Virus record (IMG/VR): IMGVR_UViG_3300049811_000819
Location: 1-63,473 of that record
From: a virus
Lineage: Duplodnaviria; Caudoviricetes
Reading direction: 5' to 3' (one strand)
Length of the DNA: 63,473 nt
Below the pieces are notes generated by a model. It was given only the letters and a program-made list of their open reading frames with translations. It was not told where the DNA came from and made no database searches. The position numbers were made by a program, and so were the translations under genes. Of this stretch, positions 4,798 to 60,993 are shown piece by piece (the first letter of the stretch is position 1; every line of letters begins with the position of its first letter).

Positions 4798-7362
4798 TCA
4801 AACATTAACAGCGATCGCTTCTTTGAAAGCAACGGGGTAGCTCGAATTTTGAAATACTCGCACAGTGTATGCCAATTGGACTGACCCCCAATCGGTTATC
4901 TGTTGTGATGCGGTATAAACAATTGATCTTTCTCCTGTCTCAGTGATAAATTCCCGTTTTATTGCACTGCCATCGTAGATTCTGACCGTGTAGGTATTGA
5001 GTTCCCCCGGTGCAAACCCCACATCGATATAGTCTGTCCACCGCCCATTAATCCGCGTCCTGCGATACCACGAGATAATCACGTCTCCCCCAGCCCGTTC
5101 CGAGTCCACAACCGCAGAAAACGGCTTGACGCTTTCCAGTGTGACAGTGTGGATTGTCTCGGTATCTACTTCCGTTTCTGTCAATCCGTCTGGCACGATT
5201 TTAAAACGAACTTCCCGGTTGACATCGAACAATTCAACAGGCAAACGGACAAGGTAATCGGTAAGCAATACAAATCTTTCGCCGACAGCATGATTATCGA
5301 TAAAACCCTCAGTTCCTTTAGTACCACGAATCATATAGGAAATATCAAAAGTTAGCGGATTATTTGAGACAATTTCCGCATTTTTAAAAGCAAGAATCTC
5401 GCCTGTAGAAAACCACCCAAGTTGTTTTCCTGCTAAGAATTTCTCAAGCGTTACTGGCTCAATTTCGCCTGAATCCATTCTTATTCGGACTGTATTAAAA
5501 TCGTCAATAAAATTAGGAGAGGAATTATTAAAGTTTGCGCTAAAACTTAATACCGTACCCGTGACACTTTCACCAGTAATAGCAGTAGCAAGTTCGTAGC
5601 TTTCTCCGCCGTCCTCAGAATAAAATATTGTCCCAGTTCGATAGTCTTCATCGCCCTCGATTGCAAGGTAAAAACCAAGATCGGCATCCGATGAGTTGAC
5701 GGGCGGGCATTCAATAACAATCGCTGTAGCCGAGCCGTAGCTTGCTGGAATTTCGCTGGGAGGGGCAAAGGTTAGATTAGTAGTAATTTCGGGCAGGATA
5801 TCGCTTGTGAGTTGGTCTATGCCAGTACAGTCAGTTACAACTCCCCAGGTTGAATCTGCGGTTAGCCCATGGGCAGTATTTTGGGTGAAAATTAGATTGT
5901 CGTCCGCATCGTAAATCCTAAATTCAGTATTGGGCAGGGGCGAAATTTGACCGAGCGGTAATGTAGTCTCGAATCGCAGAGGCGCGCGGTAGGAGACAAC
6001 TGGGCTAAATACTGTCCCTCGTTGAGCGCGTGTAATCCATCGGTTAGCGTTCGGGGGGGGAGTTGGAGAGTTGTATATTCCCAAGTCATACACCGCTATA
6101 TGCGCGCATTCGTTCGAGTATCCCTGAAATCGAGTCGCTTCTAGCTCGATTAAATATCCTGCACCTCGAACTTTTTTTGTGATCTGCAAAACTTCTCGAT
6201 GAAATAGGCGATCACCGTCTGCCGATATTAAATCTCCTACGCCAAGATCGTCCCATGCGGGCAATAAAAACATCTTGGAAAAGGTTTTAGATTGCGAGCG
6301 GCCGAGAAAAAGAACGCGAGAGGCAAGGGTAATAAATAGGTTATCACTAGATATTAATTTGGTTTGAATTGATAGCTCGTTGGTATGCTTTGCAGCAGGG
6401 TCTTTGGCGACAACCGAAATAGCGTCCTGATCTTTGTTGATATTTAATCCGCTTACTGTTACAGCACTTGGTGTTTCTCGGAAATGTGTGAGTTTTATCT
6501 CGTATAAATCTATCGGGCGATCCCCAAATTTTTTTGCTCCTAATGCCAGCCTTGGAATATGGGTAACTTCTCCCGATGTTTGCTGTTTAAAAACAAGCTT
6601 GTCTTTTGTTTCTCGAACTATCAAGAAAAACGCCCTTAATAATTCCCCGATCTGATCAGCGAACGATGTTCCTTCAAATAGTAAGTCAAAACCTTCAATC
6701 TGCAAATTATCAGGAACACCGCTCACATCGATTTTATCTTCTGCTATTCGAGCTATTTCACAAACTTTTTTCAAAATATCTTTGACTCGTGGATTTTCGC
6801 CACTTTCCCCAACTATCTCGACATCGATCCGTGGAAATCCACTGCCTTCAAATTCAGCAATTGGGTAATTATTAAAAACCAGATAACTCCAGCCTTTGAA
6901 TGCGGGAACGGGGTTCGTTTCATTTGCTTGAATTACTGAGGACGACGTAGTTTGATTACCTGTGTAAATTGTGCAACACTCTAAAAACTTTTGACTTCTT
7001 TGGTCGTCCGATCCATCACCATAAACTAATACTGAATTCATCCAAACACGCCGAACAGAACCGATTTTTTGTGCAATCGGATAAGCGGCTGTCAAAAAAT
7101 AAGAAAACGTTTCTGTTTTCTGTCCCCCGCCTTTTCCGCCTGATACTTTTCGCCGCTCTTTTAGCTTCAAACTCCACATCATTGGCAAGCCTTCTTTTCT
7201 CACCCGCCCAAACGGGAGGGAAAGAGAAAAGCCGAATTCAGCATCAGGTACTCCCGTATCCTCGATTTTTCCCTTTTGTTGTCGCGGGCCAGACGGTGCG
7301 AGAAGTGATAGGAGTAAATTGGCTCCGAGTCCAATTGCGGTAGGAATTAGGAAATTAGCCAC
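4798..7362 (-). CDS. Tail tip / host-specificity protein (GTA gp15 / Phage-tail_3-like)
   Basis: LPFGRVR, VRRVWMN, PAFKGWSYLVF, GEILAF, IRGTKGTE..H..GERFVLL and ISWYRRTR motifs. Confidence 0.85.
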   Translation of the reverse strand: MANFLIPTAIGLGANLLLSLLAPSGPRQQKGKIEDTGVPDAEFGFSLSLPFGRVRKEGLPMMWSLKLKERRKVSGGKGGGQKTETFSYFLTAAYPIAQKIGSVRRVWMNSVLVYGDGSDDQRSQKFLECCTIYTGNQTTSSSVIQANETNPVPAFKGWSYLVFNNYPIAEFEGSGFPRIDVEIVGESGENPRVKDILKKVCEIARIAEDKIDVSGVPDNLQIEGFDLLFEGTSFADQIGELLRAFFLIVRETKDKLVFKQQTSGEVTHIPRLALGAKKFGDRPIDLYEIKLTHFRETPSAVTVSGLNINKDQDAISVVAKDPAAKHTNELSIQTKLISSDNLFITLASRVLFLGRSQSKTFSKMFLLPAWDDLGVGDLISADGDRLFHREVLQITKKVRGAGYLIELEATRFQGYSNECAHIAVYDLGIYNSPTPPPNANRWITRAQRGTVFSPVVSYRAPLRFETTLPLGQISPLPNTEFRIYDADDNLIFTQNTAHGLTADSTWGVVTDCTGIDQLTSDILPEITTNLTFAPPSEIPASYGSATAIVIECPPVNSSDADLGFYLAIEGDEDYRTGTIFYSEDGGESYELATAITGESVTGTVLSFSANFNNSSPNFIDDFNTVRIRMDSGEIEPVTLEKFLAGKQLGWFSTGEILAFKNAEIVSNNPLTFDISYMIRGTKGTEGFIDNHAVGERFVLLTDYLVRLPVELFDVNREVRFKIVPDGLTETEVDTETIHTVTLESVKPFSAVVDSERAGGDVIISWYRRTRINGRWTDYIDVGFAPGELNTYTVRIYDGSAIKREFITETGERSIVYTASQQITDWGSVQLAYTVRVFQNSSYPVAFKEAIAVNV

Positions 7363-7393: not shown

Positions 7394-7804
7394 TTATTCT
7401 ACTCGATAGATAAAAACAAGCGTTCTTATGACCTCGGCAAGGTACGAACAAATTACGCCTTTTTCTGTGTCAGCATGAAGATATACCTCCTCTCCCGCAT
7501 AAATGCCAACGTGGGTTATTACACCCGCCCGTTTGAACACTAGCACATCGCCAATATCAGGTTTTCCGTCAACACGGGTTAGGTAGCGATCGAGAGATTT
7601 TACGAGAAAATCATTTCGGGGAATTCGTTCGTAATTTTCGAGGGCAAAGTCTGACGGGAGAAACCCTACATTCACTCCTACGCCAGCAAGAAATCCGACG
7701 CAATCACAACCGATTCCTTTTTTACTCTGGCCATGATGCCATGGTGTCCCAATCCACTCGATTGCCTCGGCGACGATTTTATCTCCCAACGCATCTACAG
7801 TCAT
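7394..7804 (-). CDS. NlpC/P60 tail-associated peptidase
   Basis: WIGTPWHH, GCDCVGF, HVGIY, YLHA. Confidence 0.92.
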   Translation of the reverse strand: MTVDALGDKIVAEAIEWIGTPWHHGQSKKGIGCDCVGFLAGVGVNVGFLPSDFALENYERIPRNDFLVKSLDRYLTRVDGKPDIGDVLVFKRAGVITHVGIYAGEEVYLHADTEKGVICSYLAEVIRTLVFIYRVE

Positions 7805-7964
7805 GTTCTCTTTCCTCCGATCTTGGGCGAAATCCCATCTCTACCCCGTTTCGGTAAGTAGTACAAAGCGATTCTTTTAGTTCTCGATCGCCCCGACACG
7901 ATGGGAGAATTTCCCACGCAATCGCCGAAGCAAGTATTGCTCCTAATACTACTATTTTTTTCAC
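7779..7964 (-). CDS. Small Cys-rich protein with signal peptide
   Basis: MKKIVVLGAILASAIA; the GTG start overlaps the tape measure TGA (GTGA). Confidence 0.5.
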   Translation of the reverse strand: MKKIVVLGAILASAIAWEILPSCRGDRELKESLCTTYRNGVEMGFRPRSEEREHDCRCVGR

Positions 7965-10900
7965 CCGAAAAATCTCCTTTTAGTTCGCTCATTTTGGGCG
8001 TTCTCACGCTCTTTTAGCTGAGTTAGAGAATATCCCATGTCATTCCGTGATTCTATCGTAATATTGCTCACATTGGTGATTGCAAGAGAACGATCAGATG
8101 AGGAACTATTTGAGTTCGTGATATTGTAGCCAGTTCCCCCTACAAAGCCGCCCGTCGCATAGTTTTTGATTGGGGTATTTTTATATTCTAGATAAGCTTT
8201 TGTCTCGTTCGGAGTAAGCACATACTCGTCTTCGTTGGCCACAATCAGCCGGGGGTTTCTCCCGCCGCTCATGGACCGTTCGCGTCGGAAAGCAGAAATC
8301 ATATTTTTCTCTATCGGGGCATCGGCTCCGATTTTTCCACCAGAACTAAAGAGGCTGAATCCTGTTCCCAGTGAAAAACCGGAAGCGGACGTGAATGGAG
8401 TGAAGGCGACGGACGATCCGAGTCCACCGAGGGAACCAGTGAATAGGCTTAATGCTCCTCCTAGTAGTCCGCCTCCCCCATTGCTAAACGGAACTGGGGA
8501 AGATGCGCCTCCGCTCCCTCCAAAGATTTGCATGAGTAGCTGATTGGCTGCCATTTCGCCAATCTTCTGCAAAAAGCTAGTCAGTACATTCAGCATTTGC
8601 TGTAGAGTATCCCGCCCCCCGGTGAATGCGGCTCGGAGTAAGTCGCCAAAAGCCCCAACTGCGGGATTGGCTTCAATAAATGCAGAAGCCAAATTAGCCT
8701 GTTGCATTTTGTCGAGAGCATCTGACATTTCAGATAACTGGGTAGGAGACAAGGCACCCTCTTGAGCTTGTCGCTTGAGTTCGAGGCGACGACGGGCAAA
8801 ATCTGCTTCTATACGAAGTTTTTGAGATTCTCCTGTACTAAACAGCGTTCCGAGCGGATTTATCCGGTTTCCCGCATCGATCCCGTCTGCAAGCAGGTTG
8901 TTGTAGCGTTCGAGGGCGGCTACTCGTTCATCCTCGATCATTCGCATAGCGGCCGCTTCACCCCGAATCTGTCCATAAGTGGCGAGTTGATTATCGAGAG
9001 CTTTATAGCCTTCAAGAATAGCCGTGTTTCGCTTGTTTTCGGTTTTGAGTGCTTTGAATGCGTCATCGTTGCCTGTATCCTGAAATAGCCGCGCCTGTGT
9101 TTCTTCCGAGTTTTTAGCAAAGTCTGAAGTAAGCTGTTCGAGCGATCGAATCTGGGATTGGATTGACTCTCTTTGTTTTTCGATCTCCCGACTTCCGTTA
9201 CGTCGGGCTTGTTCAATTTTCTCCGAAAACGTGAGATAGCCTTTAGAAGAACGCATTAAGTCGGTCGAGGTATCTCCCGTGTCTCTCAGTCCAATTTCGG
9301 CTTGAATTCGGCTTTCTTGCGTTTGTCGGATTAGTCCCGCAATCCGATCAAGATTTTCCCGTCTTGCTCGTTCGAGTTTAAGCAGGTTTTCTTCTTGTTG
9401 GTTTTGTAGAGCTTTCTCGCGGGTGATCCTGATTTGCGTATTGAGTTCTTGCGCCCGGTCGTAATCAAAAGTCGGAAGCGGAGCAAGCGGGATGTTTGCC
9501 TGTGGCTGCCCTGTTAACACACCAGAATATCTCTCGACATTGCCCGTCGTGTAGTTGGCTCTTTCGACCGGCGTAAGAGGCTGAAGATTCGGGTTGAGAA
9601 CTTCCTGTGCAAAGCCTTCCCAGTTTTTGTAAAGTCCCGATCTCATTAACAAGCGGTCAAACTCTTCTGACCCCGAAGTCTCTACTTGCTGAACTACCGA
9701 TGGATGGCGAATGTCGTCGGCGTTGACCGTTGATCGGTAGCGCATCGTTTTGGGGTCATAGGACGGGGAGGGATCGTATTTGTAAATCTGTCCATTGCCG
9801 TAGTCGATGTAGTCCCCGCGCTGTAATGTTCGAGGATTGTTCGGAGTTCCCTGTCTGTAATGTTCGGAGCTTTCGCTATTGTTCGGAGCTTCCCCAATCG
9901 CCGGGGCTATTTTCGGAACTTTCCCGCCAGCAATCTCTCCCGATTTAGCGAGAAGTTTTTTGGAGTTTTCCAGAATGCCCGCCCAGACTTCGTTTAAGGA
10001 CTTAAATGTTAGTTGTTGCCGTGATAGCTCACGGGCTATCTGAACTTGCTGGTTCCAGAAGTCCCGTAGCTGTTTTAAGCGATTCCGCTCGGCATCATAG
10101 ATTTGCTCTTGAATGTTCCGCAGTTGTCGAGCGAACTGGATTGACTGATCCCGAATGTCGAGCGGTCGTGTTCTCAGGCTATCAGCCTCGCCTTGAATTG
10201 AGGCCACTTCGTCCTGGTATTGCAGTATGAGGTCGTCTAATTGCTTCTGTAGCGAGTTCATGCCAGGCGTGCGCCCAGAAATGAGAGATACTCGCAAGCG
10301 TTGGTTCTCAAGGGTTCTCTGACTTGTTCGGAACTCGTTTTCCGCTTCGATGAGCGATCGCTGTAGTCCTCGGATCATATCTCCGTAGGACTCTCGGAAG
10401 CCTCTTATCTCACGGGCTGATTGAATCTGGTAATCCTCGATTGATACTCGGAGATCGACTACTTGTCTTTGCAGTCCAGTGTAATAATCCTCAAGGTCAA
10501 TTGTCTGGCTACGCAGGGATAACTTAGCCTGTTCAATCTGAAGTTGAATCCGAGCGATATTAGCTTCAATTTCTAGGGGATCACCTTTGAGTGTTCCGAC
10601 AAGCTTTGATTGTTCAAAGGCTAATTGTTTATAGAGTTTCGAGATTTCAATCAGCGTTTGGTCGCGGGCAAAAGTTTTGACCTGACTCGATACGGTTCTA
10701 GCAGTCAGCTTAATTTGCTTGTTTGTTGCCTCGATCTCGATCGCTGTGGTTGCGTAGAATTCAGCGAGGTCGTTTTGTTGATCTCTTAAGGTTAATCGTG
10801 TTCGAGCGATGTTCGCTTTAATTCGGGCAATATTCGAGCGAATTGGTAAAGGATCATCGACATTCGCCGCAAGTCGCTCTTGTTCTACTGCTAACTGTTT

Positions 10901-13900
10901 ATAAAGTTCTTCTAGAGATATTTGTGTTTCGGCAGACTGGAACGAGCGGAGTCTGCTAGTCGGGGTGGCGTTATAGAGTTTTTCTTGTTGTCCCGCAACC
11001 AGAACTTCGTTAGCTGATTGTTTTTCGGCTATCTGGCGACGTTTCCGCTCGTTAATAATCTCGCGGTTGATAGTCTGAATTTCTTTTTCTGTAGCAAGAA
11101 TATCCTGACGAGTTGTGGCGTAAGTTTGTGCCATTTCCAGAATATTTTTAAGAGCCGCATTCGATTCGAGATCGGAGTTTTCGGACATGACTCGCTCGAT
11201 TGCTTCCCGGGAAAGTAAATTCTTGTCAATTGCTTCGGAGAAACTACCGACACCGAGCTTTTTAAGATCGTCCCCAAAGTAGGTAGATAGTGTTTTGTCA
11301 GCCGCTTCTGTGATTCGAGTATTTAGTTTCGCCCCAGTTTCCGATGCAGTTGTTTGAAGGGACGCAATTTTTTCTTTTGCTGTCTGTAACGACTCCTCAC
11401 GCACCTTAACATTAAACTCATACTCGTTAAGCTGTCCCGACGCAAATCCTTTTTCGTTACCGATTTGTCGGGTTAGGGACGCTCTTGCGTTAGCAAAAAT
11501 ACGATTGTCTTGAGCATTGAGCGATCGATTAAATGCGTACTGAAGTTTTTTGTACTGTTTTTCCTGATCCCTGAGAACATTAAGGTAGTTCTGTTGTTCG
11601 GTTTTAAGTCCAGCAATTAGTTCTTTCAATCGAGCCGATTCTGATGCGTAATTTTTAAGAGTGTTTCCGCTTTTTCGATACTCTTCGTCTAGTTGTGCAA
11701 GCGCATTTTCGGCTACCTGTAAATCCGCAGTAATACGAGAACCAACAGAGCCAAAGCGTTTATCGATCGCTTCCTGCTCCGTTTTCATTAACACTTGTTC
11801 TTGCTCATTTAAGCGTACTATCGATGCGGAATCCCCTTTACCTGAAGCAACTGCCCGTTCCGCTCGAATTAATGCAATCTGGTTCCGAACACCTTGCAGT
11901 GAATCGATAAACTTATCGATCCCGCTCGTATCCGAGAGTACAGTCTGATAACCTTTTAAGTTTGTTTCTAGCTCTCCTGCGCCTTCTCGAATGTTTTTAA
12001 GATTTTCTTGCCGATCACGAACGGCATTGTTTCTTTTAAAAGTGTAAACAGTTCCGACTGTTAAAACATTAAGAACTTTTTCGGTTCCCGATAAATTCAT
12101 GTCAGGGAAAAGATTATTCCAGAGATTTTTGTCTGGTTTAATTTTCCCTAAATCCTCTAAAACTTTTCTCGATTCCTTGAGAGTCTCAAGCGAATTTTTA
12201 AGTTCTGCATTCCCATTCTCGAAAATATCATAAAATGTTGTCAGCGCAAAGATTGTCGAGGCGGGAACAATCATCGCTCCGAGTGTTGCTTTTATTACTC
12301 CGCCCGCTACTTTTGCTGTAGCCGTGAGAGTTTGCATCTGGGTTGTTGTTTGCCCTGCTGTAACTCCCATTGCAAACAATGAGGCATTGTAAGAAGATAC
12401 AAGCATTGCTCCCAGTCGAGTAGCGGCAGAAAATTGCAATACTGCTTTTCCGAGTAGCCCGATTGCGCTTATCGCCGCAGATGCGCCTACTGTTACAACT
12501 AAACTGAGGTTGTCGCTTAGTCCCTTCAGGAGAGCGTTGAGTAGCTGTAGCGCAGGGTAAGCCACAACGCCAAGTTTTTCCCCGGCTCCCATCGATAGCT
12601 GTTCAACGTTGTTCTGGTAGCGATTGATTTCTGCTTGGAGAGTTTTGCTTGCCGCTCCGAGTCCTCCTGCGCTCATCCTTTCGTATTCGGACGATAATCG
12701 AGGGATCACATCATCAGTGAGTAATTGTCCTGCGCTGGCTTGTCGGTAGAATTCGGCAGTCGTAAGTCCCGACGCACGAGCGGCTACGATCAGTGCGTCG
12801 TAAAGTCCTCCCGACTCGGTTAATTGTTGAGTAAACTCCTCGACTGACAATACTGACCGAGATGCCATCTGATTAATCGCTCGGAATGTCTCGGCTTGTT
12901 GTTGTGGGCTAGTTTGCCGTACTGCAAGAGCAGACTGAAAACCTTGATAGATGTTGTCGCTTTGAGCTTGCAGTGGCGAATTCATTGTTACGATACGGAA
13001 CTGGGCGTACTGCTTGGCTGATTCTTTAAACGAGATACCGAGTTCGTTAGCCCGATCCTGTAGCCCGTCAATCGACGCATTAACGTCGCTAACGCCAGCG
13101 ACATTAAGGTTGATCTTGATTTGCTCTAATTCAGTAAAGGCGAGAAGCGAACTAGAAACTGCTTGTTGGAATTGAAATGGTAAGTTCTGAATTCCAAAGA
13201 ATAAAGGCTGTAATAGGAATTCGGCGGTTTTAAATAGAGCAAGTCCTCCAATAACTGCCAGCGATGCTTTACGAAGATTGAACATCCCCCCCGTAGCCGC
13301 ATCGAGTTCTTTGTCGAGGGTTCTGAGGGCTTTGCCGCCGACCGATAAGAAATTGATAAACCCATCCGCTTGAGCAATTGCAGCTTTTAGTCCACTTACG
13401 AAACTAGAGGTAAATCCGCTTGAAACGCCCGCTTCTTCAAAGCTGTCAAGAGTTTTGAAGATGTTATCTCTTTTTTGATTCCAGTCGCCAAGAATTTCTT
13501 CCCTTGTCGATTTTTGGGGATTCGATGTTTTTATAGTTTGATTTAAAAGCGATTCTCTTTTTTGTAGGATTGCTCTAGCTTTTATCAAGTCTTCTAGGTA
13601 GCGTTGTGGCGAATCTTTTAGCCCGCGAGACATCTCTGTATTCGTAGCCATCCGCTCCCCGTCGTTCGGGTCAGGAAAACCAGACGCAACACGAGGACGG
13701 CGGGGGGGCTGATTGCCACCTCCTCCCCCAGAAGCTAATCGAGCTTGCTCGGCACGTTGTTGCATCACGTCTGTTGCGTTTCTGGCTTGTTGAGCTAATC
13801 GAGCTTGCTCGGCACGTTGTTGCATCACGAGCGATGCCGCTTTTTGCATTGCTTGAATTTCGGATGCTAATGTTTTAGCTACCTTGCTTTTTGTCGTCTC

Positions 13901-16900
13901 AATTATGTTAATTGCATTTTCGATTCGTCTAGAAATTCTTTTCGCTTGCTTTTCAGTTTCAATAGCTTCTTTTTCGGGCTGATCAAGATTTTGTTTTTTA
14001 ACTGCTTGTTTAGGTTTTATTTTTTCTTCAATAACACTAAACTCAGCATCTATAATACGAGATGGATTAGCATTATTTGACTGTTTTGACTGTCTTGGTT
14101 GTGGTATATTTTCAACAACTGGAATAGCCGATAAAGGTTTTTGTTGTTGATTTGCTTTTTTGAGTTTAGATGCAACTTTTCCAGTTATTCCAAGCAAACT
14201 TAGTAAAGAAGCAACAGTTAACCCATAATTGCCTATAAATTTTAACAAATCGGTAGTTAATGCTTTCTCGGCAGATTCAACCTTTTTAGAAACATTTTTA
14301 ACTGGTAATATTTTGCTAGTTATTGATTGAGGACTGATAGACAATTCTTTATCAACAATAGAGTCAGAGACAATACTTGCTAAAAGATTTTTTTCTTTTT
14401 TAACAGGAGTAGGAGTAGTTACACTAGGAGGTTTAGATAGCTTCGCTTGTTTGTTTTCTATTTGAGGACGTTCAAAAAATCTTAATTGGTAAGGGGTAGA
14501 TTTGCCTGTCCCACCTAACGATTGCGGTAAAATGCGACTTAATGATTTACTTGGTACTGTTAACCTTGCCATATTCCCATGATCGGGAAGCATAACAGCA
14601 GTAAATCCCATAGAGCGAGCATATTTTTCTAACTGTTGTGGAGTCATATCTTTTTGACCTTCCATGGCAGTTAAATTACCTTCTTTTGTTTTACCAAAAA
14701 ATACTCTAGGACGAGGAACTTGGTAAGCTAACTGCTGTTTTACCGAGCTATGATAGCCTCCTTTGTAATTAGCTGGTCGTTGAACTTCGTCGTTGTATAA
14801 AACATGAAGACCGCCAATAAAAGTATCGTAATCGCTTAATCTATTCGATTTAGCTCCGCCATAGCCAAATTTTAAATTACCTTGTTTATTGATGCCAATA
14901 AAACCCCTTTCTTCTGCGGCGGCACGATTACGAGATAACTGCAAAACTTGTCCTCTTTGAACAACGTCTGCAATCATGTTTACTTTCTGATTTTTATTTT
15001 GCAAGAAAAATCTATCAAACATCGGGCCGGAACTATAAGCAATTGCCTGTTTATCCCGAAAAGCTTTTTTATCTACATCAACCTGCTTAACAACCTCTGC
15101 CCCAGTTGTAGCGGGGTTCATCGTGACCCCCTTAAAGGATTCTGTTTGGATAAATTGCTGTGCGTTGACAGGCATCCCACTAGAAGCTATGGCAAGAGTA
15201 GCCATAAGTCCCTTAACTGCCGGATTGGATAATCCTTTTTGTAATTCCTTGATAACTTTAGTGGTTAATTCTTTTACCTTAGTAGTTAATCTGCTTTCTT
15301 GTCTTTCAACGCCTATTCCTATTCCTTCAATTAGGTTTTTACCCGCTTTCTCTCCTTTTCGTGATGGCGATTGGTTTCCTAATCCCTTGTTAGTTGCGTT
15401 TACAATATCGATAGCATTTTGGTAAGCGATTTTTTCTGCTTTGTTATCTTTTAATCCTTTGGCTAAACCTTCGTTAAGGTTTTTGCCTGCCTCAATACCT
15501 TTTTTCCCGATCTCAGGGAGAAAAGTAGATTTCAATCCACCTGCTTCTGATGTTCGCTCCATCAATCCACCCATTTCTGGTGGAAGTGCTTTAAATCCGT
15601 ACCGTTCCCACAGTTTTTTTGATCGTGCGTCAGTTGGTAGAGTTACAAGGGGCGTATTGCCAACATGGGCAAATAGCTCTTTCATCCATCGGTTTAATAC
15701 CTCTCGGACTTTAGCTCGCGTTTCTGGATTAACAGGGGGAGTAAATGTGTTATTTACCATCAACGACGAAAGCATAAAGCGCCCGTCTTTTAGACCATGA
15801 CCATAAAGTCTAACTTTATGGTCATCGATAGTTTCTTCTCTAACGAAATCGCTAGTCTTGTTAGATAAGGGTTTTTCAGAAAGACTCACTGAGGGATTTT
15901 TCGATAGCTTTTTTGTTAATAATTTTTGTGTATTTTCAACAACGTCGCCACCTTCCCACTTGACCATTTTTGCTTCGGTTGCAAGGTCTTTTAACCCAGA
16001 GATTGGATCGGCAAAGCGAGATTGGATAATTTTTTCAATATCACCTAAAAACAGACCCACTTCAAAAGCTTTGACAATTTCTTCGGCTAACTCTTGAAAA
16101 TCGGATGATGCAAGCTCTTTTTCAATGCCTATCTCTACACCTTTGATTAAGTTTCTTCCTGCTTTTTCCCCTTTCCAAGATGGCGATCTATTACCTAATT
16201 CATTATTTAACCCATCAATAATATTTTTGGCATTTTTTCTAGCGATTTTGCCAGCTTTGTTATCTTTTAAGCCTTTAGTTAGACCTTCATTGAGGTTTTC
16301 AGCTGCTTTAATGCCCTCGTCGGTTAGATCGACTACGGTGAATTCAACATCAATTATTTGAGCTTTATCAAATAATTTTTTAACCTCATCGATTAAATGG
16401 CCAAGCATTCCCCCTAGTGATTGATTTATTTTCCCTCCCTTTAATTGAGGGTCTTCTATAAATCTTTTTATTTCAGCTGCCGATGCGACTGCAGATTTAT
16501 AAGCTTCTTTGATTTTGGCTAAACTTTTGGTATCATCTGGCATATTTAATGCCTCAGTTAGCAAATTTTTAGCCTGTTGGTATTGACCTGACTTTATCGT
16601 TTTTACATAATCTTTGGGAACCTTGACTGGTTCAAAGGGGGCTAGTTCTATTGGGTTAGGGAGTTTTGATGAAGCTAATCTTTGATAACTCTGTTTAAAC
16701 GTTTTAATAAGAGCGTCGGTTCTTCCTTGTAATGCTTTCTGGTCGTTGGCTCCTAGCCTCTGGGGAATGCTACCGGTGGCCGCTCCTAGAAGTTTTTTGA
16801 CCCCTTCCCCTGCCATTAACGACGATCCAGCAACCGCTCCCCCTTGCGCTAAGACACTGATAGTGCCGTTAGTTAGTTCGGTTACGAGGTTCATTACTGC

Positions 16901-19900
16901 TTCTGTTAGCTGTTGACCTACTCCGAACGGTAAGCCACTAAAAGCTTGTGTCATTTGCATTGACACTGCTTGAAGCATTTCCTGTCCACCAGCGCTCATC
17001 GCCCCTGACAGAATAGTTCGCATTTCGTTGATAACTGCGGCATCTAATCCGAGGGGGAGAGCGTGAAGGGCGGCCGCTCCTACTGCGGCAGTTCCCCCTA
17101 GCTGTAATGCTTTTTTACCTAAGCCCATCCCTGGTATAGCCATGACAGGGCGCTCGATCGCTTTCAATACCGTGAAAACAGTTTGACCGAATTTGATAAT
17201 ATCTAGAGAGGTATCCTTGAGAGCGTTTCTAAGTATTCTGCTCGCTTCTTTTACCTCTCTAATCAATACCTGATTTAATAGGTCTGAAATACTCTCATTA
17301 CCCGACAAAAGCTGTATTTCACCGCTACTATCAGGAGTCGATAATCTAGTAGTTAAACTGCTTTTTAAGCCTGCTTGGGTTTTGATAGCTATACTTTCTA
17401 AGACTTTTTCTAGCGGAGTATTTCCTCTGTCTGTTTCGCTAATACCAAAACCTTCAGGAGCGGGCGGCAAGAGCTTTTGTGAGGATGCTTTGTTAACTGC
17501 ATTTACGAAAGACTGCATTAATTCGGCATTAGATTTAGCCCACGGGTCGTTAGGTGTGCTATTTTGCCACGGATCGATTAAACGACTAGCATATTTGGCT
17601 AGAATAGCTTTTTCTATTCGGGATAGACTAGAAACTATTTGTTTTGTGGCACTGTGAATAGTTTTTTCAATTAAGTTTTCTTTTCCTGTTAAATCTTTTT
17701 GTTTGTTAACTACATCTGATACCTCTTGAGGCTTTATTTGTTGATTCTTGTTTAAAAGTGCCGCAAACTCGGAGATCGCTTTTTCGAGCCTATCAATGCT
17801 AATGATAGCGACTTCTCTGTTCTGGGAGTCTTTGCTTAATTGCCCCGATCTGCTACTTTTAGTTGGGGGACTAACAATGTCGCCTCCTACATTAAGGGTA
17901 TTTTGTTGTCTTCTCCGCAAAAAACGCGGATCATTAACCATTAATGAAGTGTCAGCATACCCCTCATCAAAAGCTTTTTGAAATATTTCCGTGGTTTTTT
18001 TATCGTATCCTTGAGTGCTTCGTCCTTTTGCCCCTTGAACATCTCTATTTATCTGTTCTTGGCGAGTTGTCTGATCTTTTGATAGCTTTGTTGCATTAGC
18101 AAAATCAATAGCTTTTAGTTCGTTTTCTGGACTAATTAAAACATTTTCTGTATTTAGATCAAAATGAGCATATCCAGATTCGTGTATATTTTTGAGTAAG
18201 CGTGCATAACGTTTTACATAATTTGTAAAAGCTTTAATATTTTCTTGGGTACTTAAATCGGCTTTTCGTAAAATATCGTTTAAAGAGCCAACTGTTTTAA
18301 TATATTCCTGAATAAAATACTCACCTTTTCTTGCGGTAATCGGGCGTGGTGCAAGTCCTTGTTTTGCCATTGCTAACTGAGCCTGGAACTCTTTTGGGGT
18401 TCCAAGTTTTCCTTGATTTAGTTCCGTGACTGGTGTTTTAATCGCTAAATTTCCAAGTCGATACACGGCTCCCGTAAAACCTTGTCCTACTTTTTCCGCT
18501 TTAAGTACATCAAGGTTTTCAGGGAGTATTTTTTGGGATTTCTGTAATGCTCGATTAACATTAATTAAGTCAAATGGCTGATACTGAATTGACTTGATAT
18601 TCTGTGATTCAGATGTTAGGGATTGCGATACATTTTCTAGCGCACTCTCGATTAATCCTGTATTTGTTCTTAAAGACGCTTCAAATCCAAGAATAGCGTT
18701 TGAGAGGTTAAAGAAAAAGTCGGTAATATTTTCTACGCTTTCGCCCATTGTGGCGATCTCTTTAATTACCTTGTTTTTCCCTATAAAAGTCGGAACTGAT
18801 GCGTTTGTGTCAACGTATTTATTAGCCGCATTTATCATTTCGCCAATACGCGAGAATGGGCTAGTTTTTAAGAGTTGAAGGTATTCTGATTGCGCTCCCT
18901 TGTCTCCCCCTGCGATTCTTTTTTGCAATTCGGAAACACGTCTTAAAAAGCCTTGATAAATCTGTGCTTCTTTCCGACGTATTTCAATCAAAGCCTGAAC
19001 GACTTTTTTGGCCGCCTTGTCTGCTTCCGTGTTCATGGGCATTTTGTCAACCCACTTTAATAAATCGGGCAGGGACTGGTCTTTGACTAGCGGCAATCCT
19101 TTTTGATTAGTTGTTTGCGAGAGTTTGTAGAGAATATCCCCAAATCGAGGATTAATGTTTTTACGAATATTGCTAGGCGCATCTTCTCTACGAGAAAACA
19201 TTTCTCCGTATGTTGCTGAGTCTGGAGCAGCATTGTCTGGCTCTGTAACGTAGTGATAAGGTTTTGCTCCAAACTGTTTTTCGTACCCTGCTTCAGCTAG
19301 GGTATCAATAGCATTGATAAAGTTAGTCCATTCTGTCTCAAATTCTTCTCCCATCGTGCGGAAAATATTTTTCCGTGTCTCCATCCAAAAGCGTAAAAGC
19401 GAGCCGAAGTTGCTTGGCTTAAGATCGATAGTATCGGTTCCTGAATTAACAAGTTTCTCGATTTCTTCTAGGTTCGAGAGAAGCGGGTCAAGGTAAGAAA
19501 AAGGAACACTTGCTCCCGTAAGAATTTCTGCAAGAGTATTCTGGTAGGCGGAAATTGTGCTTTGTAGTTCTTTTTGTTCTCCCCCAGATGTTTTGCTTGG
19601 ATTACCAAGAACTGGGATCGTTTTTAAAAACTCTGTCCGTTCAGCTATTTCTTGATCAACGGACGTAATCAACGCAAGTAATTCATCTAGTTTTTTAGTA
19701 TCGTTGACTGATAACCTTGATCGGTCAACACCTGACACAGATTGATCTAATTTTTCTTTGTATTTTTTTAATTCTGTAATTCGCTTAACAATTGGAGCAT
19801 AAAGATGCTTGAGCGACTCTCTGAGACTTTTATTAAATTGTTTTTGAGATGTAGCAAGATTGCTTACATAAAGTCCAATCTTGTGATCTTCCCCTGTTCT

Positions 19901-21712
19901 GTTAAGAGTTAATTGCTGTTTTGACGGAAAGAAAAGACGAGAAGGTAAAGCAACATCAGCAGTTTTGTAAATATCTTCGGCTGCTTTTTTCTTTTTGGCA
20001 TCTTTGCTGTTTATATCGGGAATAAACGACTTTCCAAACATCGTGATCCCAACCTTATCGTAGTTGCCCATTGCAGCAACATATTTAAGCGGGCTTTTCG
20101 GATCGACTACGGAAGTTAAACCTGCATTTGGTGTGCCTATCCCTAATCCATATTTGACATTTTTTAGCATTTCCCTAAGAGCGGGTGACATCTTCATTAG
20201 TTGCTGTAGGATAGCGACTGCCTCCTCAACAACGTAGCCACCACCAGAACCCCCGACTAACGCAATCTCCTTGTCGGGGTTTCCCATTGCAACATTTAAC
20301 GCTTTTGCTGCTAACGTAATTGCGTCTTTGTCAAATCCCTCAAAATTAGTTTGAGCTACTCGATCAATTGGCTGAACTGTTTTAAAAGCTGTTAAAATTC
20401 CTTGATAATCCGCTTCAGACATGAACTTTTGCAAAAGTTCTTTATTTTTCTCGACAATTGGTAGCAATTGCTCTCGAATAAATTGACTTGGACTATTTTT
20501 TAGTTCTTCTAGGCTATTTGATAGGACGTTCGGAACGGCAAGGACGGCTGTTTCTGGAAAAACCCCTTGTACTTGAGCAGCAAGGTCGTAGGTACTTTTT
20601 ACCTGCGGCTGTCCAGGGCGGGATTCACTTGGTTGAACACCACCGGTTACTAAAGTAATAGATTTTCTAGATTTAATAAAATCCTGCTCTTTTTGCGAGA
20701 GTTGTAAGATTTTCGCTATTTCTTCGGCTGCTCTTGCTGATTCCGAGAGTTGTATTCGTTTGCGAATTCTTAACGGTTGTACTGCAACTCGTGCGGCCGC
20801 TCCCAGTGATCGCACGAGATTTTCCTCGGCCACCATTGCAATTTTCGGAAAAGCCTCTTTTAGTTTTTCCCCAATCGGGTAAGCGGGTTCTGGTTCTGTT
20901 GAATTTTTGGGACGTTTTTTGACGTTTGCACGACTAAACTGTTGCGCCTCAACGTAAAGGTCTTCTAATTTTCGATAAGTCTCTGGGTTAAAAAGTGTAT
21001 CAGTTATTGCTCTGTAATTGATACGAAGCAACTGTTTTGCCCCTTTTAGTCCCCTAGGGAAGCCCAGTAAATCCTTAAAAGCAGCGTCAAGAAGATTGTT
21101 AAACTGCTTAACATTGCGGCGAATAGTTTTACCTACTGCCTCGCCTTGATCCTCGAAGTCAATTCCGACTGTTCTATTAAGTCCTTTGCCCGCTTTTAGC
21201 CCGCTATAAAGCCCTGCCCCCGTAAAGAATCCCTCGACTGCATTGCCCACAGTGAGATTAAATGCCTTTTGAAAAATATTTCCGCGAGGGTTAGAGTTTC
21301 GGACGGTTACAGACAGTCGCTCGATCGCTTTTTCTACTTTGTCCTGATAGCCTGAAAAACGATGCTCGACTACAAGCCGAGACGGAACCTTTATATCGAC
21401 ACTGACGCGCTTTAATTCCCGCAATTCCCGATTAAGCCTAACAAGTTCCCGATCCTCGACATAGACACGAACGGGGTTGCGCCGGTAATGAGCAACGGTT
21501 TTGTCGAGGTCATCTCGTTTGAGCTTCAAGTGATCGTTCAGTTGGTACAACCGGCGATCATCTACTTCTACCCCGATTTTTACCGTCACCCCAGAGCGAG
21601 CGGCCATGCGCTGTAGGGAGACAAGTTGACCTTTTGCCCGTGCGATACCAATATCGTACTGGTTAGTATTTAAGCCCAGTCCAATTTCTAGCGTGCCTAG
21701 CGAAACAGTCAT
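7961..21712 (-). CDS. Giant multidomain tape measure protein (4583 aa)
   Basis: Follows the tail chaperones; TMP-type N-terminus (LGTLEIGLGLN); tape-measure domain near 12550-13140 (FRAINQMASRSVLSVEEFTQQL); coiled coils; C-terminal FSSGG/EYVL/YATGGFV motifs. Confidence 0.92.
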   Translation of the reverse strand: MTVSLGTLEIGLGLNTNQYDIGIARAKGQLVSLQRMAARSGVTVKIGVEVDDRRLYQLNDHLKLKRDDLDKTVAHYRRNPVRVYVEDRELVRLNRELRELKRVSVDIKVPSRLVVEHRFSGYQDKVEKAIERLSVTVRNSNPRGNIFQKAFNLTVGNAVEGFFTGAGLYSGLKAGKGLNRTVGIDFEDQGEAVGKTIRRNVKQFNNLLDAAFKDLLGFPRGLKGAKQLLRINYRAITDTLFNPETYRKLEDLYVEAQQFSRANVKKRPKNSTEPEPAYPIGEKLKEAFPKIAMVAEENLVRSLGAAARVAVQPLRIRKRIQLSESARAAEEIAKILQLSQKEQDFIKSRKSITLVTGGVQPSESRPGQPQVKSTYDLAAQVQGVFPETAVLAVPNVLSNSLEELKNSPSQFIREQLLPIVEKNKELLQKFMSEADYQGILTAFKTVQPIDRVAQTNFEGFDKDAITLAAKALNVAMGNPDKEIALVGGSGGGYVVEEAVAILQQLMKMSPALREMLKNVKYGLGIGTPNAGLTSVVDPKSPLKYVAAMGNYDKVGITMFGKSFIPDINSKDAKKKKAAEDIYKTADVALPSRLFFPSKQQLTLNRTGEDHKIGLYVSNLATSQKQFNKSLRESLKHLYAPIVKRITELKKYKEKLDQSVSGVDRSRLSVNDTKKLDELLALITSVDQEIAERTEFLKTIPVLGNPSKTSGGEQKELQSTISAYQNTLAEILTGASVPFSYLDPLLSNLEEIEKLVNSGTDTIDLKPSNFGSLLRFWMETRKNIFRTMGEEFETEWTNFINAIDTLAEAGYEKQFGAKPYHYVTEPDNAAPDSATYGEMFSRREDAPSNIRKNINPRFGDILYKLSQTTNQKGLPLVKDQSLPDLLKWVDKMPMNTEADKAAKKVVQALIEIRRKEAQIYQGFLRRVSELQKRIAGGDKGAQSEYLQLLKTSPFSRIGEMINAANKYVDTNASVPTFIGKNKVIKEIATMGESVENITDFFFNLSNAILGFEASLRTNTGLIESALENVSQSLTSESQNIKSIQYQPFDLINVNRALQKSQKILPENLDVLKAEKVGQGFTGAVYRLGNLAIKTPVTELNQGKLGTPKEFQAQLAMAKQGLAPRPITARKGEYFIQEYIKTVGSLNDILRKADLSTQENIKAFTNYVKRYARLLKNIHESGYAHFDLNTENVLISPENELKAIDFANATKLSKDQTTRQEQINRDVQGAKGRSTQGYDKKTTEIFQKAFDEGYADTSLMVNDPRFLRRRQQNTLNVGGDIVSPPTKSSRSGQLSKDSQNREVAIISIDRLEKAISEFAALLNKNQQIKPQEVSDVVNKQKDLTGKENLIEKTIHSATKQIVSSLSRIEKAILAKYASRLIDPWQNSTPNDPWAKSNAELMQSFVNAVNKASSQKLLPPAPEGFGISETDRGNTPLEKVLESIAIKTQAGLKSSLTTRLSTPDSSGEIQLLSGNESISDLLNQVLIREVKEASRILRNALKDTSLDIIKFGQTVFTVLKAIERPVMAIPGMGLGKKALQLGGTAAVGAAALHALPLGLDAAVINEMRTILSGAMSAGGQEMLQAVSMQMTQAFSGLPFGVGQQLTEAVMNLVTELTNGTISVLAQGGAVAGSSLMAGEGVKKLLGAATGSIPQRLGANDQKALQGRTDALIKTFKQSYQRLASSKLPNPIELAPFEPVKVPKDYVKTIKSGQYQQAKNLLTEALNMPDDTKSLAKIKEAYKSAVASAAEIKRFIEDPQLKGGKINQSLGGMLGHLIDEVKKLFDKAQIIDVEFTVVDLTDEGIKAAENLNEGLTKGLKDNKAGKIARKNAKNIIDGLNNELGNRSPSWKGEKAGRNLIKGVEIGIEKELASSDFQELAEEIVKAFEVGLFLGDIEKIIQSRFADPISGLKDLATEAKMVKWEGGDVVENTQKLLTKKLSKNPSVSLSEKPLSNKTSDFVREETIDDHKVRLYGHGLKDGRFMLSSLMVNNTFTPPVNPETRAKVREVLNRWMKELFAHVGNTPLVTLPTDARSKKLWERYGFKALPPEMGGLMERTSEAGGLKSTFLPEIGKKGIEAGKNLNEGLAKGLKDNKAEKIAYQNAIDIVNATNKGLGNQSPSRKGEKAGKNLIEGIGIGVERQESRLTTKVKELTTKVIKELQKGLSNPAVKGLMATLAIASSGMPVNAQQFIQTESFKGVTMNPATTGAEVVKQVDVDKKAFRDKQAIAYSSGPMFDRFFLQNKNQKVNMIADVVQRGQVLQLSRNRAAAEERGFIGINKQGNLKFGYGGAKSNRLSDYDTFIGGLHVLYNDEVQRPANYKGGYHSSVKQQLAYQVPRPRVFFGKTKEGNLTAMEGQKDMTPQQLEKYARSMGFTAVMLPDHGNMARLTVPSKSLSRILPQSLGGTGKSTPYQLRFFERPQIENKQAKLSKPPSVTTPTPVKKEKNLLASIVSDSIVDKELSISPQSITSKILPVKNVSKKVESAEKALTTDLLKFIGNYGLTVASLLSLLGITGKVASKLKKANQQQKPLSAIPVVENIPQPRQSKQSNNANPSRIIDAEFSVIEEKIKPKQAVKKQNLDQPEKEAIETEKQAKRISRRIENAINIIETTKSKVAKTLASEIQAMQKAASLVMQQRAEQARLAQQARNATDVMQQRAEQARLASGGGGGNQPPRRPRVASGFPDPNDGERMATNTEMSRGLKDSPQRYLEDLIKARAILQKRESLLNQTIKTSNPQKSTREEILGDWNQKRDNIFKTLDSFEEAGVSSGFTSSFVSGLKAAIAQADGFINFLSVGGKALRTLDKELDAATGGMFNLRKASLAVIGGLALFKTAEFLLQPLFFGIQNLPFQFQQAVSSSLLAFTELEQIKINLNVAGVSDVNASIDGLQDRANELGISFKESAKQYAQFRIVTMNSPLQAQSDNIYQGFQSALAVRQTSPQQQAETFRAINQMASRSVLSVEEFTQQLTESGGLYDALIVAARASGLTTAEFYRQASAGQLLTDDVIPRLSSEYERMSAGGLGAASKTLQAEINRYQNNVEQLSMGAGEKLGVVAYPALQLLNALLKGLSDNLSLVVTVGASAAISAIGLLGKAVLQFSAATRLGAMLVSSYNASLFAMGVTAGQTTTQMQTLTATAKVAGGVIKATLGAMIVPASTIFALTTFYDIFENGNAELKNSLETLKESRKVLEDLGKIKPDKNLWNNLFPDMNLSGTEKVLNVLTVGTVYTFKRNNAVRDRQENLKNIREGAGELETNLKGYQTVLSDTSGIDKFIDSLQGVRNQIALIRAERAVASGKGDSASIVRLNEQEQVLMKTEQEAIDKRFGSVGSRITADLQVAENALAQLDEEYRKSGNTLKNYASESARLKELIAGLKTEQQNYLNVLRDQEKQYKKLQYAFNRSLNAQDNRIFANARASLTRQIGNEKGFASGQLNEYEFNVKVREESLQTAKEKIASLQTTASETGAKLNTRITEAADKTLSTYFGDDLKKLGVGSFSEAIDKNLLSREAIERVMSENSDLESNAALKNILEMAQTYATTRQDILATEKEIQTINREIINERKRRQIAEKQSANEVLVAGQQEKLYNATPTSRLRSFQSAETQISLEELYKQLAVEQERLAANVDDPLPIRSNIARIKANIARTRLTLRDQQNDLAEFYATTAIEIEATNKQIKLTARTVSSQVKTFARDQTLIEISKLYKQLAFEQSKLVGTLKGDPLEIEANIARIQLQIEQAKLSLRSQTIDLEDYYTGLQRQVVDLRVSIEDYQIQSAREIRGFRESYGDMIRGLQRSLIEAENEFRTSQRTLENQRLRVSLISGRTPGMNSLQKQLDDLILQYQDEVASIQGEADSLRTRPLDIRDQSIQFARQLRNIQEQIYDAERNRLKQLRDFWNQQVQIARELSRQQLTFKSLNEVWAGILENSKKLLAKSGEIAGGKVPKIAPAIGEAPNNSESSEHYRQGTPNNPRTLQRGDYIDYGNGQIYKYDPSPSYDPKTMRYRSTVNADDIRHPSVVQQVETSGSEEFDRLLMRSGLYKNWEGFAQEVLNPNLQPLTPVERANYTTGNVERYSGVLTGQPQANIPLAPLPTFDYDRAQELNTQIRITREKALQNQQEENLLKLERARRENLDRIAGLIRQTQESRIQAEIGLRDTGDTSTDLMRSSKGYLTFSEKIEQARRNGSREIEKQRESIQSQIRSLEQLTSDFAKNSEETQARLFQDTGNDDAFKALKTENKRNTAILEGYKALDNQLATYGQIRGEAAAMRMIEDERVAALERYNNLLADGIDAGNRINPLGTLFSTGESQKLRIEADFARRRLELKRQAQEGALSPTQLSEMSDALDKMQQANLASAFIEANPAVGAFGDLLRAAFTGGRDTLQQMLNVLTSFLQKIGEMAANQLLMQIFGGSGGASSPVPFSNGGGGLLGGALSLFTGSLGGLGSSVAFTPFTSASGFSLGTGFSLFSSGGKIGADAPIEKNMISAFRRERSMSGGRNPRLIVANEDEYVLTPNETKAYLEYKNTPIKNYATGGFVGGTGYNITNSNSSSSDRSLAITNVSNITIESRNDMGYSLTQLKERENAQNERTKRRFFG

Positions 21713-34212: not shown

Positions 34213-34291
34213 AAACTTTCAGTTTAAAATAGTGATGCCCCCGATCGCTTCGGGGGACTAACCAATTCAACCTAAAAGGCAGGTCAAAATG
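34211..34291 (+). promoter_or_regulatory. Antirepressor promoter and two-hairpin leader (copy 1)
   Basis: GAAACTTT..TAAAAT; GCCCCCGA-TCGCT-TCGGGGG-ACTAACCA; ACCT-AAAAGGC-AGGT; ATG. Confidence 0.75.
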
Positions 34292-36142: not shown

Positions 36143-36214
36143 TAGAATACTTGTATCGCCCTCTAGTTCTCGCTAGAGGGACTAAACAATAAGCCTAAAC
36201 AGGAGGCACTAATG
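36143..36214 (+). promoter_or_regulatory. Antirepressor promoter and two-hairpin leader (copy 2)
   Basis: TAGAAT; GCCCTCTAG-TTCTCG-CTAGAGGG-ACTAAACA; GCCT-AAACAGG-AGGC; ATG. Confidence 0.78.
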
Positions 36215-60957: not shown

Positions 60958-60993
60958 GTTTTTTCTCTCCTTGTTTTTTTTTTGTGAAAGCAA

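Follow-up and report, generated by a model that had tools for sequence, protein, structure and literature searches.

A giant prophage tape measure protein with variable enzyme-like modules in its N-terminal half, a candidate vehicle for proteins ejected at infection

Introduction

Why does a phage tape measure protein (TMP) carry some 2700 amino acids (aa) of enzyme-like sequence between its N-terminus and its tape-measure domain? This question is raised by a single gene of the provirus deposited as IMG/VR virus record IMGVR_UViG_3300049811_000819, the 63,473 bases of which, rated complete in the source record, are referred to here as the window. An open reading frame (ORF) called on the minus strand of this window (7961..21712) runs over 4583 codons without interruption or internal stop, and the plus-strand ORFs within it are all at most 119 aa long. 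The original prediction, made from the sequence alone, read its product as a TMP with at least four unrelated globular domains in the region 13140-21300 (aa 137-2857) and suggested that it doubles as a delivery vehicle for effectors of early host takeover. A TMP with a long enzyme-bearing insertion was supported by our analysis through a TMP_3 domain, the neighbouring tail genes and the domains found in the cargo. We further consider it fairly probable, judging from the sequence, that this TMP is built like a polyvalent protein and that its cassette-like cargo is co-ejected into the host at infection.

Results

Tape measure identity and conserved parts

The protein was scanned against Pfam as a whole and as 30 overlapping 300-aa pieces, and matches at E ≤ 0.5 were considered. 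TMP_3 (PF20155) matched aa 2861-3039 with 56.9 bits against a cut-off of 41, directly behind the predicted span of about 2700 aa that ends at aa 2857. PHROG 2335, 'tail length tape measure protein', covered aa 2563-3545 (E 2.1e-16), and the solved putative tape measure protein 9cuy_W aligned with aa 2878-3027 (E 5.7e-5). The gene is part of a non-contractile tail module and lies upstream of tail tip genes. Its downstream neighbours on the same strand encode an NlpC/P60 minor tail protein (7394..7804; PF00877, 39.6 bits; PHROG 329) and a host-specificity tail protein similar to gpJ and to g15 of gene transfer agents (GTA) (4798..7362; PHROG 4271, E 6.6e-86; Phage-tail_3, Rcc01698_C). A Neck1/tail-completion PHROG was found upstream, and no sheath family was detected among the ORFs of the window scanned with Pfam/PHROG-type profiles. 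Because of the TMP_3 match above cut-off, the matches to PHROG 2335 and 9cuy and the downstream NlpC/P60 and gpJ-like genes, we assign the product of 7961..21712, by its sequence, as a tape measure protein. Terminase, integrase and recombination directionality factor (RDF) genes also occur in the window, and we read the phage as a temperate prophage of the siphovirus type.

Relatives of this protein (P0001) comprised 16 giant proteins of 2701-5481 aa from a protein search, 26 viral loci and one locus from a genome collection, a 10.6-kb contig binned as a Methylomonas metagenome-assembled genome that holds little but the giant gene. Among GenBank phages, 133 records matched, all below 60% identity and only in the TMP_3 domain, with a coverage of 8-12% among the 25 listed. 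Identities were tabulated between the query and 34 other sequences, several of which are truncated loci. The N-terminal anchor (aa 1-130, 21323..21712; this and all following coordinates within the gene refer to the minus strand) is conserved in homologues whose following sequence differs, with 63-89% identity in 22 closer homologues and 36-45% in L002, P0014, P0015 and P0016. A Gly/Ala-rich hydrophobic block (aa 1440-1700, 16613..17395) showed 54-73% identity in 23 of the 34 sequences. Eight of the 11 sequences without it are truncated upstream of the block, and the other three (L006, P0015 and P0016) start at the N-terminal anchor and lack it. The start of the tape-measure core (aa 2735-3040, 12593..13510), which includes the TMP_3 and 9cuy_W matches, and the C-terminal domain (aa 4448-4583, 7964..8371) are 63-80% and 70-88% identical in homologues, respectively. 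Between them lies the ruler part (aa 3041-4447, 8372..12592), in which hydrophobic helices (aa 3068-3164) are followed by long charged-rich stretches and, at aa 3901-4100, by a Gly/Pro-richer stretch.

Hydrophobic segments were called by Kyte-Doolittle means over 19 residues. Around the core they fall at aa 2816-2834, 3068-3097 and 3137-3164, and the remainder is charged-rich. Two further segments had been predicted near 16800-17130 and 14180-14230; we located them at 17030-17101 (aa 1538-1561, the peak of the hydrophobic block, mean ≥ 1.4) and at 14168..14248 (aa 2489-2515, helix-like, mean 1.40-1.48).

Enzyme-like modules in the N-terminal half

The predicted protein-kinase-like domain was borne out by profiles and solved structures alike. 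Pkinase (PF00069) scored 41.8 bits on a 300-aa piece (cut-off 31.7) and 35.3 bits on the whole protein, RIO1, Kdo and PK_Tyr_Ser-Thr likewise exceeded their own cut-offs at this domain, and solved kinases aligned to aa 1069-1223. In an NCBIfam scan of 18 pieces, kinase families were the only ones to appear, all of them below cut-off. The domain (aa ~1061-1230, 18023..18532) contains a G-loop (G1076/G1078/G1081), K1092, H1183-x-D1185, N1190 and D1203; the catalytic motif reads HFD and, by eye, has no insert between His and Asp. Since the Pkinase match extends no further than position 156 of the 263-position profile and low-complexity sequence lies beyond, we regard it as a minimal protein kinase without a C-lobe. 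The N-lobe was alignable in 12 of 13 aligned family members. L006 has no kinase, and weak matches to kinase families were seen in L003 and L022.

A NAGPA-like domain had also been proposed, and it was recovered through its fold, not through Pfam: PF09992 (NAGPA) had no match in the query protein. When 1.84 billion representatives were searched with a three-sequence profile of the domain (aa ~2180-2420, 14453..15175), only 58 relatives were retrieved at E ≤ 1e-3. With 34 of these relatives aligned, an AlphaFold (AF2) model reached pLDDT 87-97 across the domain. Foldseek matched this model to 13 PDB chains at E ≤ 1e-3, all of them NAGPA, DUF2233 or similar, with 6u11 as the best (4e-9) and E values of 4e-9 to 1.8e-6 for NAGPA, 3ohg and 5h3k. 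Structural comparison with VIA gave Z 19.9 for 5h3k from Synechocystis, 18.2 (6pkg) and 18.1 for NAGPA, 17.2 for 3ohg and 16.1 for 6ozd; these alignments covered 215-231 residues, and the next entry had Z 7.4. Of the 30 nearest clusters in the protein atlas, 23 belonged to the NAGPA set. According to the model, aa ~2180-2420 thus has the NAGPA/DUF2233 fold, with a putative phosphodiester glycosidase-like activity.

The relatives of this domain are mostly 200-600 aa long, and many, stand-alone ones among them, begin, by eye, with a hydrophobic, signal-like segment. Three of the 24 relatives scanned were fused to SLT or M23 domains (P0033, P0034 and P0035, one of them 3628 aa long), and the NAGPA profile gave two sub-threshold matches among the 24 (E 0.008 and 0.097). 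The family alignment contains the conserved motifs LPDH(G/A) and GGLH. In BFVD, 25 viral models matched the domain at E ≤ 1e-3; viral proteins of the same fold are named phosphodiester glycosidase, PlyB-like endolysin, cell wall hydrolase or CHAP. A word-based search returned one stand-alone relative (P0018, 37% identity), and GenBank phages gave no match for aa 1945-2475 of the query. Cyanobacterial peptidoglycan carries polysaccharide via phosphodiester links, and such a link would be a plausible substrate of the NAGPA-like module.

The third predicted module, an alpha/beta-hydrolase-like domain (aa 321-640, 19793..20752), was supported in part. A putative triad in the order Ser489 (within GGS489GG, a GxSxG motif), Asp552 and His610 was invariant in all six aligned sequences, and in the predicted model a strand (162-168 in model numbering) runs into Ser489 and is followed by a helix (172-188). 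VIA placed LysB of mycobacteriophage D29 (3hc7) first, with Z 10.3 and a root mean square deviation of 3.2 over 137 aligned residues, and 26 of its top 30 entries are esterases, lipases, cutinases, thioesterases or alpha/beta hydrolases by title. But Lipase_2, the Pfam family matched, stayed below cut-off (E 0.046), Foldseek gave no match at E ≤ 1e-3 with the poor model (pLDDT 49), and a profile search against PDB sequences found no hydrolase, its best match being an unrelated repeat protein. On this moderate support, aa 321-640 likely has an alpha/beta-hydrolase fold of the esterase/cutinase/LysB type.

A small alpha/beta domain (aa 1955-2044, 15581..15850) had been read as GNAT-like. It was predicted to fold as beta-beta-beta-alpha-beta-alpha at pLDDT 62-87 even without homologues in the alignment, and it was unique to the query among the homologues examined; Pfam, PDB sequences and a word-based search returned no match. 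The protein atlas gave only a weak lead to GNAT. A wide VIA search placed Crl (3rpj) first (Z 7.4) and had no GNAT among 50 entries. In a second VIA comparison, 12 of the 14 entries covering the domain were GNAT acetyltransferases (six distinct proteins), with Z of only 3.7-4.8. The loop of GNATs that binds the pyrophosphate of acetyl-CoA, Q/R-x-x-G-x-G/A, lies between the central strand and the next helix. By eye, the small domain has no Gly in its corresponding loop, which joins strand 25-32 to helix 42-63, and an R-x-x-G-x-G string sits earlier, in strand 2. The prediction of a folded alpha/beta domain therefore stands, but without a sequence match or an acetyl-CoA loop, and with low-Z structural matches to GNATs, the GNAT label is a weak one.

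This domain occupies a slot (aa 1867-2067) between two copies of a linker repeat that we call SPS. Repeat 1 (aa 1796-1866, 16115..16327) and repeat 2 (aa 2068-2150, 15263..15511) share 51% identity over 95 aa (E 6e-30), and at the DNA level they form a direct repeat, D1, with 72% identity over 196 nt; between repeat 2 and its counterpart in L008 the identity is 67%. One to three SPS repeats follow the hydrophobic block in homologues. A low-complexity hinge (aa ~2622-2690, 13643..13849) precedes the core and combines a duplicated MQQRAEQARLA unit with a Gly5/Pro-rich stretch. Just upstream of the latter, we found a perfect 37-nt tandem duplication, D3, with its copies 60 nt apart (window 13733-13829), which looks like a recent scar of slippage or recombination. 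A Gly/Pro-rich junction before the core is also present in L002, L003, L004, L008, L009, L010, L019 and L027. The low-complexity and TMP-type linkers named in the original prediction could thus be found as SPS repeats and as a Gly/Pro hinge. In the protein encoded at L019:2-8773, three tandem copies of a ~25-aa hinge unit precede the core (aa ~430-500).

Cassette-like variation and selection

An alignment with homologous TMPs, which the original prediction had named as a check, showed conserved ends and a conserved tape-measure part, and the cargo between N-terminal anchor, hydrophobic block, core and C-terminus differed among homologues. The hydrolase-kinase block of the query is shared with P0003, L021 and L025 (~79-89%) and with P0007 (55%), L006 shares only aa 1-1018 (35%), and the other members have different sequence in its place. 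The slots that follow SPS repeats, clustered after trimming off the shared linker, fell into 11 clusters, one of which is an empty spacer of 62-85 aa. At least ten cargo types occur between SPS linkers across the family; a P0014 'type' of 2456 aa, which arose because the core anchor is missing there, is not counted. In L008, SPS repeats homologous to those of the query (54-67% identity) flank an ART-PolyVal domain (71.9 bits) in the slot that holds the small alpha/beta domain here. ART-PolyVal (PF18760), a hallmark of the polyvalent class, was detected in L008 and L009 with 68-72 bits, and the NAGPA-like slot recurs in L004, L008 and L027. Variation extends to the C-terminal part: L022 carries SLT and a Beta-lactamase2/Peptidase_S11-like domain there, and L021 has Beta-lactamase2/Peptidase_S11 without SLT. 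P0013 has a precomputed M23 annotation. Neither SLT nor Beta-lactamase2 had a Pfam match in the ruler part of the query, though relatives carry both there.

The query itself combines segments with different affinities. In its N-terminal anchor it is closer to L003/L004 (89% identity) than to L021 (64-65%). The hydrolase-kinase block, which L003/L004 lack, shares 86-89% identity with L021, and the C-terminal 1930 aa are once more close to L003/L004 (84%). We take these patterns as signs of a cassette-like exchange of modules. GC content is 0.34-0.43 in cargo and linkers versus 0.46-0.49 in the anchors (0.49 in the N-terminal anchor, 0.46 in the hydrophobic block), and on the basis of this lower GC the cargo may be of foreign origin.

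The cargo is under purifying selection. We obtained dN/dS values of 0.06 both for the hydrolase (against L021) and for the NAGPA-like domain (against L004), 0.10 for a helical stretch and 0.11 for the kinase, next to 0.08-0.09 for core, ruler and C-terminus; dS was saturated for the N-terminal anchor against L021. Since dN/dS is 0.06-0.11, the cargo is kept as working protein. In the clade of the query (P0001, L003, L004, P0004 and L006), the distance from the core to the end is 1849-1867 aa and the part before the core measures 2075-2734 aa. This constant core-to-end length next to a variable N-terminal part suggests that only the C-terminal part is under length constraint.

Prophage context and probable host

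Besides the tail genes, the window contains an integrase fragment, an RDF-like gene, a large terminase gene, regulators of the Rha and Bro/Ant types and a C5 methylase gene. The HIP1 octamer GCGATCGC, a word typical of many cyanobacteria, occurs 13 times in the window (for example at 3917, 4811, 10354, 28941 and 55747), versus 0.87 times expected, and none of 100 shuffled sequences reached 13. The TMP gene has a single copy, which is outside the cargo part. The closest relatives, L006 and L007, have nine copies each, and 20 of 28 loci have none at all. Since GCGATCGC is enriched in the window and the word is typical of many cyanobacteria, the host of the query's clade is likely a cyanobacterium.

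Several other features of the prophage were recorded. There are three Rha-type and three Bro-N/Ant-type regulator paralogues (33313-34212, 34289-35053, 36212-36988, 42559-43311, 43403-44125 and 52270-53025). An EAL-domain protein of the c-di-GMP phosphodiesterase type (130.8 bits) is encoded at 48773-49618 on the minus strand. A ResIII/DEAD/Helicase_C helicase (59134-60993, minus strand) has a weak DnaJ-domain match between its helicase lobes (21.4 bits, below cut-off). A 781-aa fusion of distal-tail (DUF2460) and hub domains (Phage_phiJL001_Gp84_N and Phage_BR0599), as in a GTA/lambda-like tail tip, is encoded at 53653-55998 on the minus strand, ~32 kb from the TMP gene and not between the TMP and NlpC/P60 genes; a DUF2793 protein lies near it (58203-59168). 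In L008, L010, L012, L013, L017, L018, L021, L022, L025 and L027, the frame of the TMP gene is open and conserved over 42 codons before the ATG, which may reflect the overlapping end of an upstream gene or a frameshift-chaperone arrangement.

Discussion

A possible delivery mechanism

The N-terminal anchor, the hydrophobic block, the TMP_3 core with the ruler and the C-terminus would form a chassis common to the whole family, with enzyme modules sitting between its parts, several of them between SPS linkers that would act like cassette borders. The full-length protein would be assembled into the tail and leave it before the DNA does, the ruler together with the N-terminal load it carries. Its hydrophobic segments would enter the envelope, envelope polymers would be the target of the NAGPA-like and esterase-like modules, and the kinase, or the ART of relatives, would modify host proteins. 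The NAGPA-like module points to the envelope because of the SLT/M23 fusions and hydrophobic N-termini of its relatives and the endolysin and cell wall hydrolase names of its viral counterparts. Together with the esterase-like module, it looks more like an envelope-acting function, a known theme of TMPs. Only the kinase, and the ART of relatives, would fit a cytoplasmic takeover, since these enzymes need ATP or NAD+. The delivery vehicle for takeover effectors that had been proposed would therefore be a mixed one, part of the cargo probably acting on the envelope and part inside the cell. More tentatively, the TMP may be the delivery chassis of a whole system of injected-effector cassettes, with SPS linkers as recombination borders at which related phages would swap kinase, ART, NAGPA-like and other modules, and an N-terminal cargo that threads behind the ruler and refolds in periplasm and cytoplasm; we regard this as possible.

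A number of points weigh against delivery of the cargo into the host. The presence of the N-terminal 2700 aa in particles, or their exit from them, is a prediction from sequence. The lumen of a siphovirus tail measures ~4 nm, and folded domains of 20-35 kDa in three copies should not fit into it, so the cargo would have to be unfolded or outside the tube. The N-terminal anchor lies upstream of the cargo, and if tube growth stops there, the cargo counts toward tail length. The Pfam scan of 30 pieces at E ≤ 0.5, which a divergent domain could escape, gave no match to a peptidase or processing domain in the query, and ART-PolyVal was matched by Pfam in relatives and not in the query. Among the cargo pieces of relatives, 15 of 22 had no Pfam family at E ≤ 0.01, and most linker stretches of the query match no recognisable family either. 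Finally, the distal-tail/hub gene (53653-55998) lies away from the TMP gene, which makes the tail module a split and non-canonical one.

Alternative explanations

Because the N-terminal anchor precedes the cargo and tail tubes are narrow, other explanations stay alive. All of the cargo could serve envelope penetration only, which would make the protein an exaggerated muralytic TMP for a thick cyanobacterial envelope, without host takeover and with a kinase that is regulatory or acts on envelope precursors. The SLT and M23 fusions of NAGPA-fold relatives, the naming of viral neighbours as endolysin or cell wall hydrolase, the proximity of the esterase-like domain to LysB and cutinases, and the SLT and Beta-lactamase2/Peptidase_S11-like domains in the C-terminal part of relatives would all fit this explanation. 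It is difficult to reconcile, however, with a kinase that needs ATP, which is absent outside the cytoplasm, and that is kept in 12 of 13 aligned members with a dN/dS of 0.11, or with relatives that carry the NAD+-dependent ART-PolyVal; we consider it unlikely. The same judgement applies to the idea that the N-terminal half is no virion component at all, being cleaved off or acting in the producing cell in assembly, lysis or superinfection exclusion, so that the C-terminal ~1850-1900 aa measure the tail. The near-constant core-to-end length (1849-1867 aa) next to a variable N-terminal part in the query's clade is what such a protein would show, and a Gly/Pro-rich hinge lies directly before the core in the query and the eight relatives listed above. 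But no protease domain was found by the Pfam scan of the query, and the conservation of the N-terminal anchor at the far end of the cargo would be hard to explain if that part were discarded. In the query gene, the ATG of Met2688 is also preceded, at a distance of four bases, by a Shine-Dalgarno-like (SD-like) GGAG, and an internal start there would give a TMP of normal length. However, such an SD-like start within 110 codons of the core was present in only one of 19 genes, that of the query, and three of the 19 have no Met there, and we rejected an internal start as a feature of the family.

A third explanation concerns tail length only and is otherwise compatible with cargo delivery. With ~0.15 nm per residue of a TMP ruler, the whole 4583 aa could serve as ruler of an extremely long tail of ~690 nm, in the lumen of which the enzymes would be stored unfolded. 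The TMP-type N-terminal anchor ahead of the cargo, as well as the TMP-type SPS linkers and the second hydrophobic block inside the cargo region, would agree with such a ruler, but close relatives with near-identical core-to-end parts differ by up to ~660 aa in their N-terminal parts and would then have tails ~100 nm apart, which makes this explanation very unlikely in our view. We therefore prefer a polyvalent-like TMP whose cargo is co-ejected with it, and delivery is a reasonable inference as its function.

Comparison with known systems

If this cargo is indeed delivered, siphoviruses would gain a route of effector injection equivalent to head-packaged polyvalent proteins. Little is known of the way in which siphoviruses bring proteins, besides DNA, into the cell. 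The family of giant TMPs (3400-5600 aa), with kinase, ART, NAGPA-fold, esterase-like and cell-wall hydrolase domains in exchangeable slots, provides a concrete system in which to ask whether a tail ruler can also serve as a carrier of effectors, in what way a narrow tube, or the space behind it, stores folded enzymes, and what frees tail length from the length of the cargo. The family is also a source of unexplored enzyme modules, as most cargo types of the relatives match no Pfam family. A full-text literature search, with subscription journals outside its coverage, turned up no phage TMP described as carrying a module of the kinase, ART or NAGPA type and no co-occurrence of 'tape measure protein' and 'protein kinase domain', in line with the original prediction, which had not recognised this architecture as known from cyanophage TMPs.

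Muralytic domains are embedded in TMPs such as T5 Pb2 and, as motifs, Tmp of mycobacteriophage TM4, and are thought to act on the envelope at DNA entry. The family described here resembles them in having enzyme domains within a TMP, including the SLT, M23 and beta-lactamase-like domains of relatives. Unlike them, the query has ~2700 aa of cargo ahead of its core, comprising four modules or more, and slots are flanked by repeats. The literature search also found no link between TMPs and modules of the kinase, NAGPA or, in relatives, ART type. Polymorphic toxins combine a conserved delivery part with exchangeable enzymatic modules that recombine between conserved borders. A conserved carrier with swappable modules is common to both, but the modules are internal here and not C-terminal tips, and neither immunity genes nor spare cassettes were noticed beside the gene, although no search was aimed at them. 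Polymorphic toxin systems are also mentioned in the text available on polyvalent proteins (PMC5512222).

According to the available text of that study (PMC5512222, Iyer et al. 2017), polyvalent proteins contain ARTs, GNATs and lysozymes as well as kinases that have lost the C-terminal subdomain, and they are proposed to be injected with the DNA. The likeness to the giant TMPs extends to a single giant polypeptide with unrelated enzymes, cassette-like variation and a proposed DNA-linked delivery, and includes the C-lobe-less kinase of the query, ART-PolyVal in L008 and L009, and peptidoglycan hydrolases. Several unrelated catalytic-type domains (kinase, NAGPA fold and hydrolase-like) indeed occur together in this one very large phage protein. 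Differences from the polyvalent proteins of that text (PMC5512222) are that the chassis is a tape measure protein, that no peptidase (MPTase) was found by the Pfam scan and that the kinase has no His-Asp insert. The term 'tape measure' does not occur in its main text (0 occurrences), which also notes a paucity of polyvalent proteins in cyanobacteria (PMC5512222); the giant TMPs would fill this gap for cyanobacterial phages if they are delivered as proposed. Their architecture is, on good support, a combination of two known kinds, enzyme-bearing TMPs and polyvalent proteins, in one protein. A further parallel is provided by the TMP-related effectors of the Sle1 type from actinobacterial contractile injection systems, which have variable C-terminal domains (PMC13277306, 2026). 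As far as the available text of that study goes, both share a TMP-derived helical platform with a variable, exchangeable functional domain, but Sle1 belongs to contractile non-phage particles of Actinobacteria and has one variable C-terminal domain (PMC13277306). The query is a bona fide prophage TMP and carries several modules N-terminal to its ruler.

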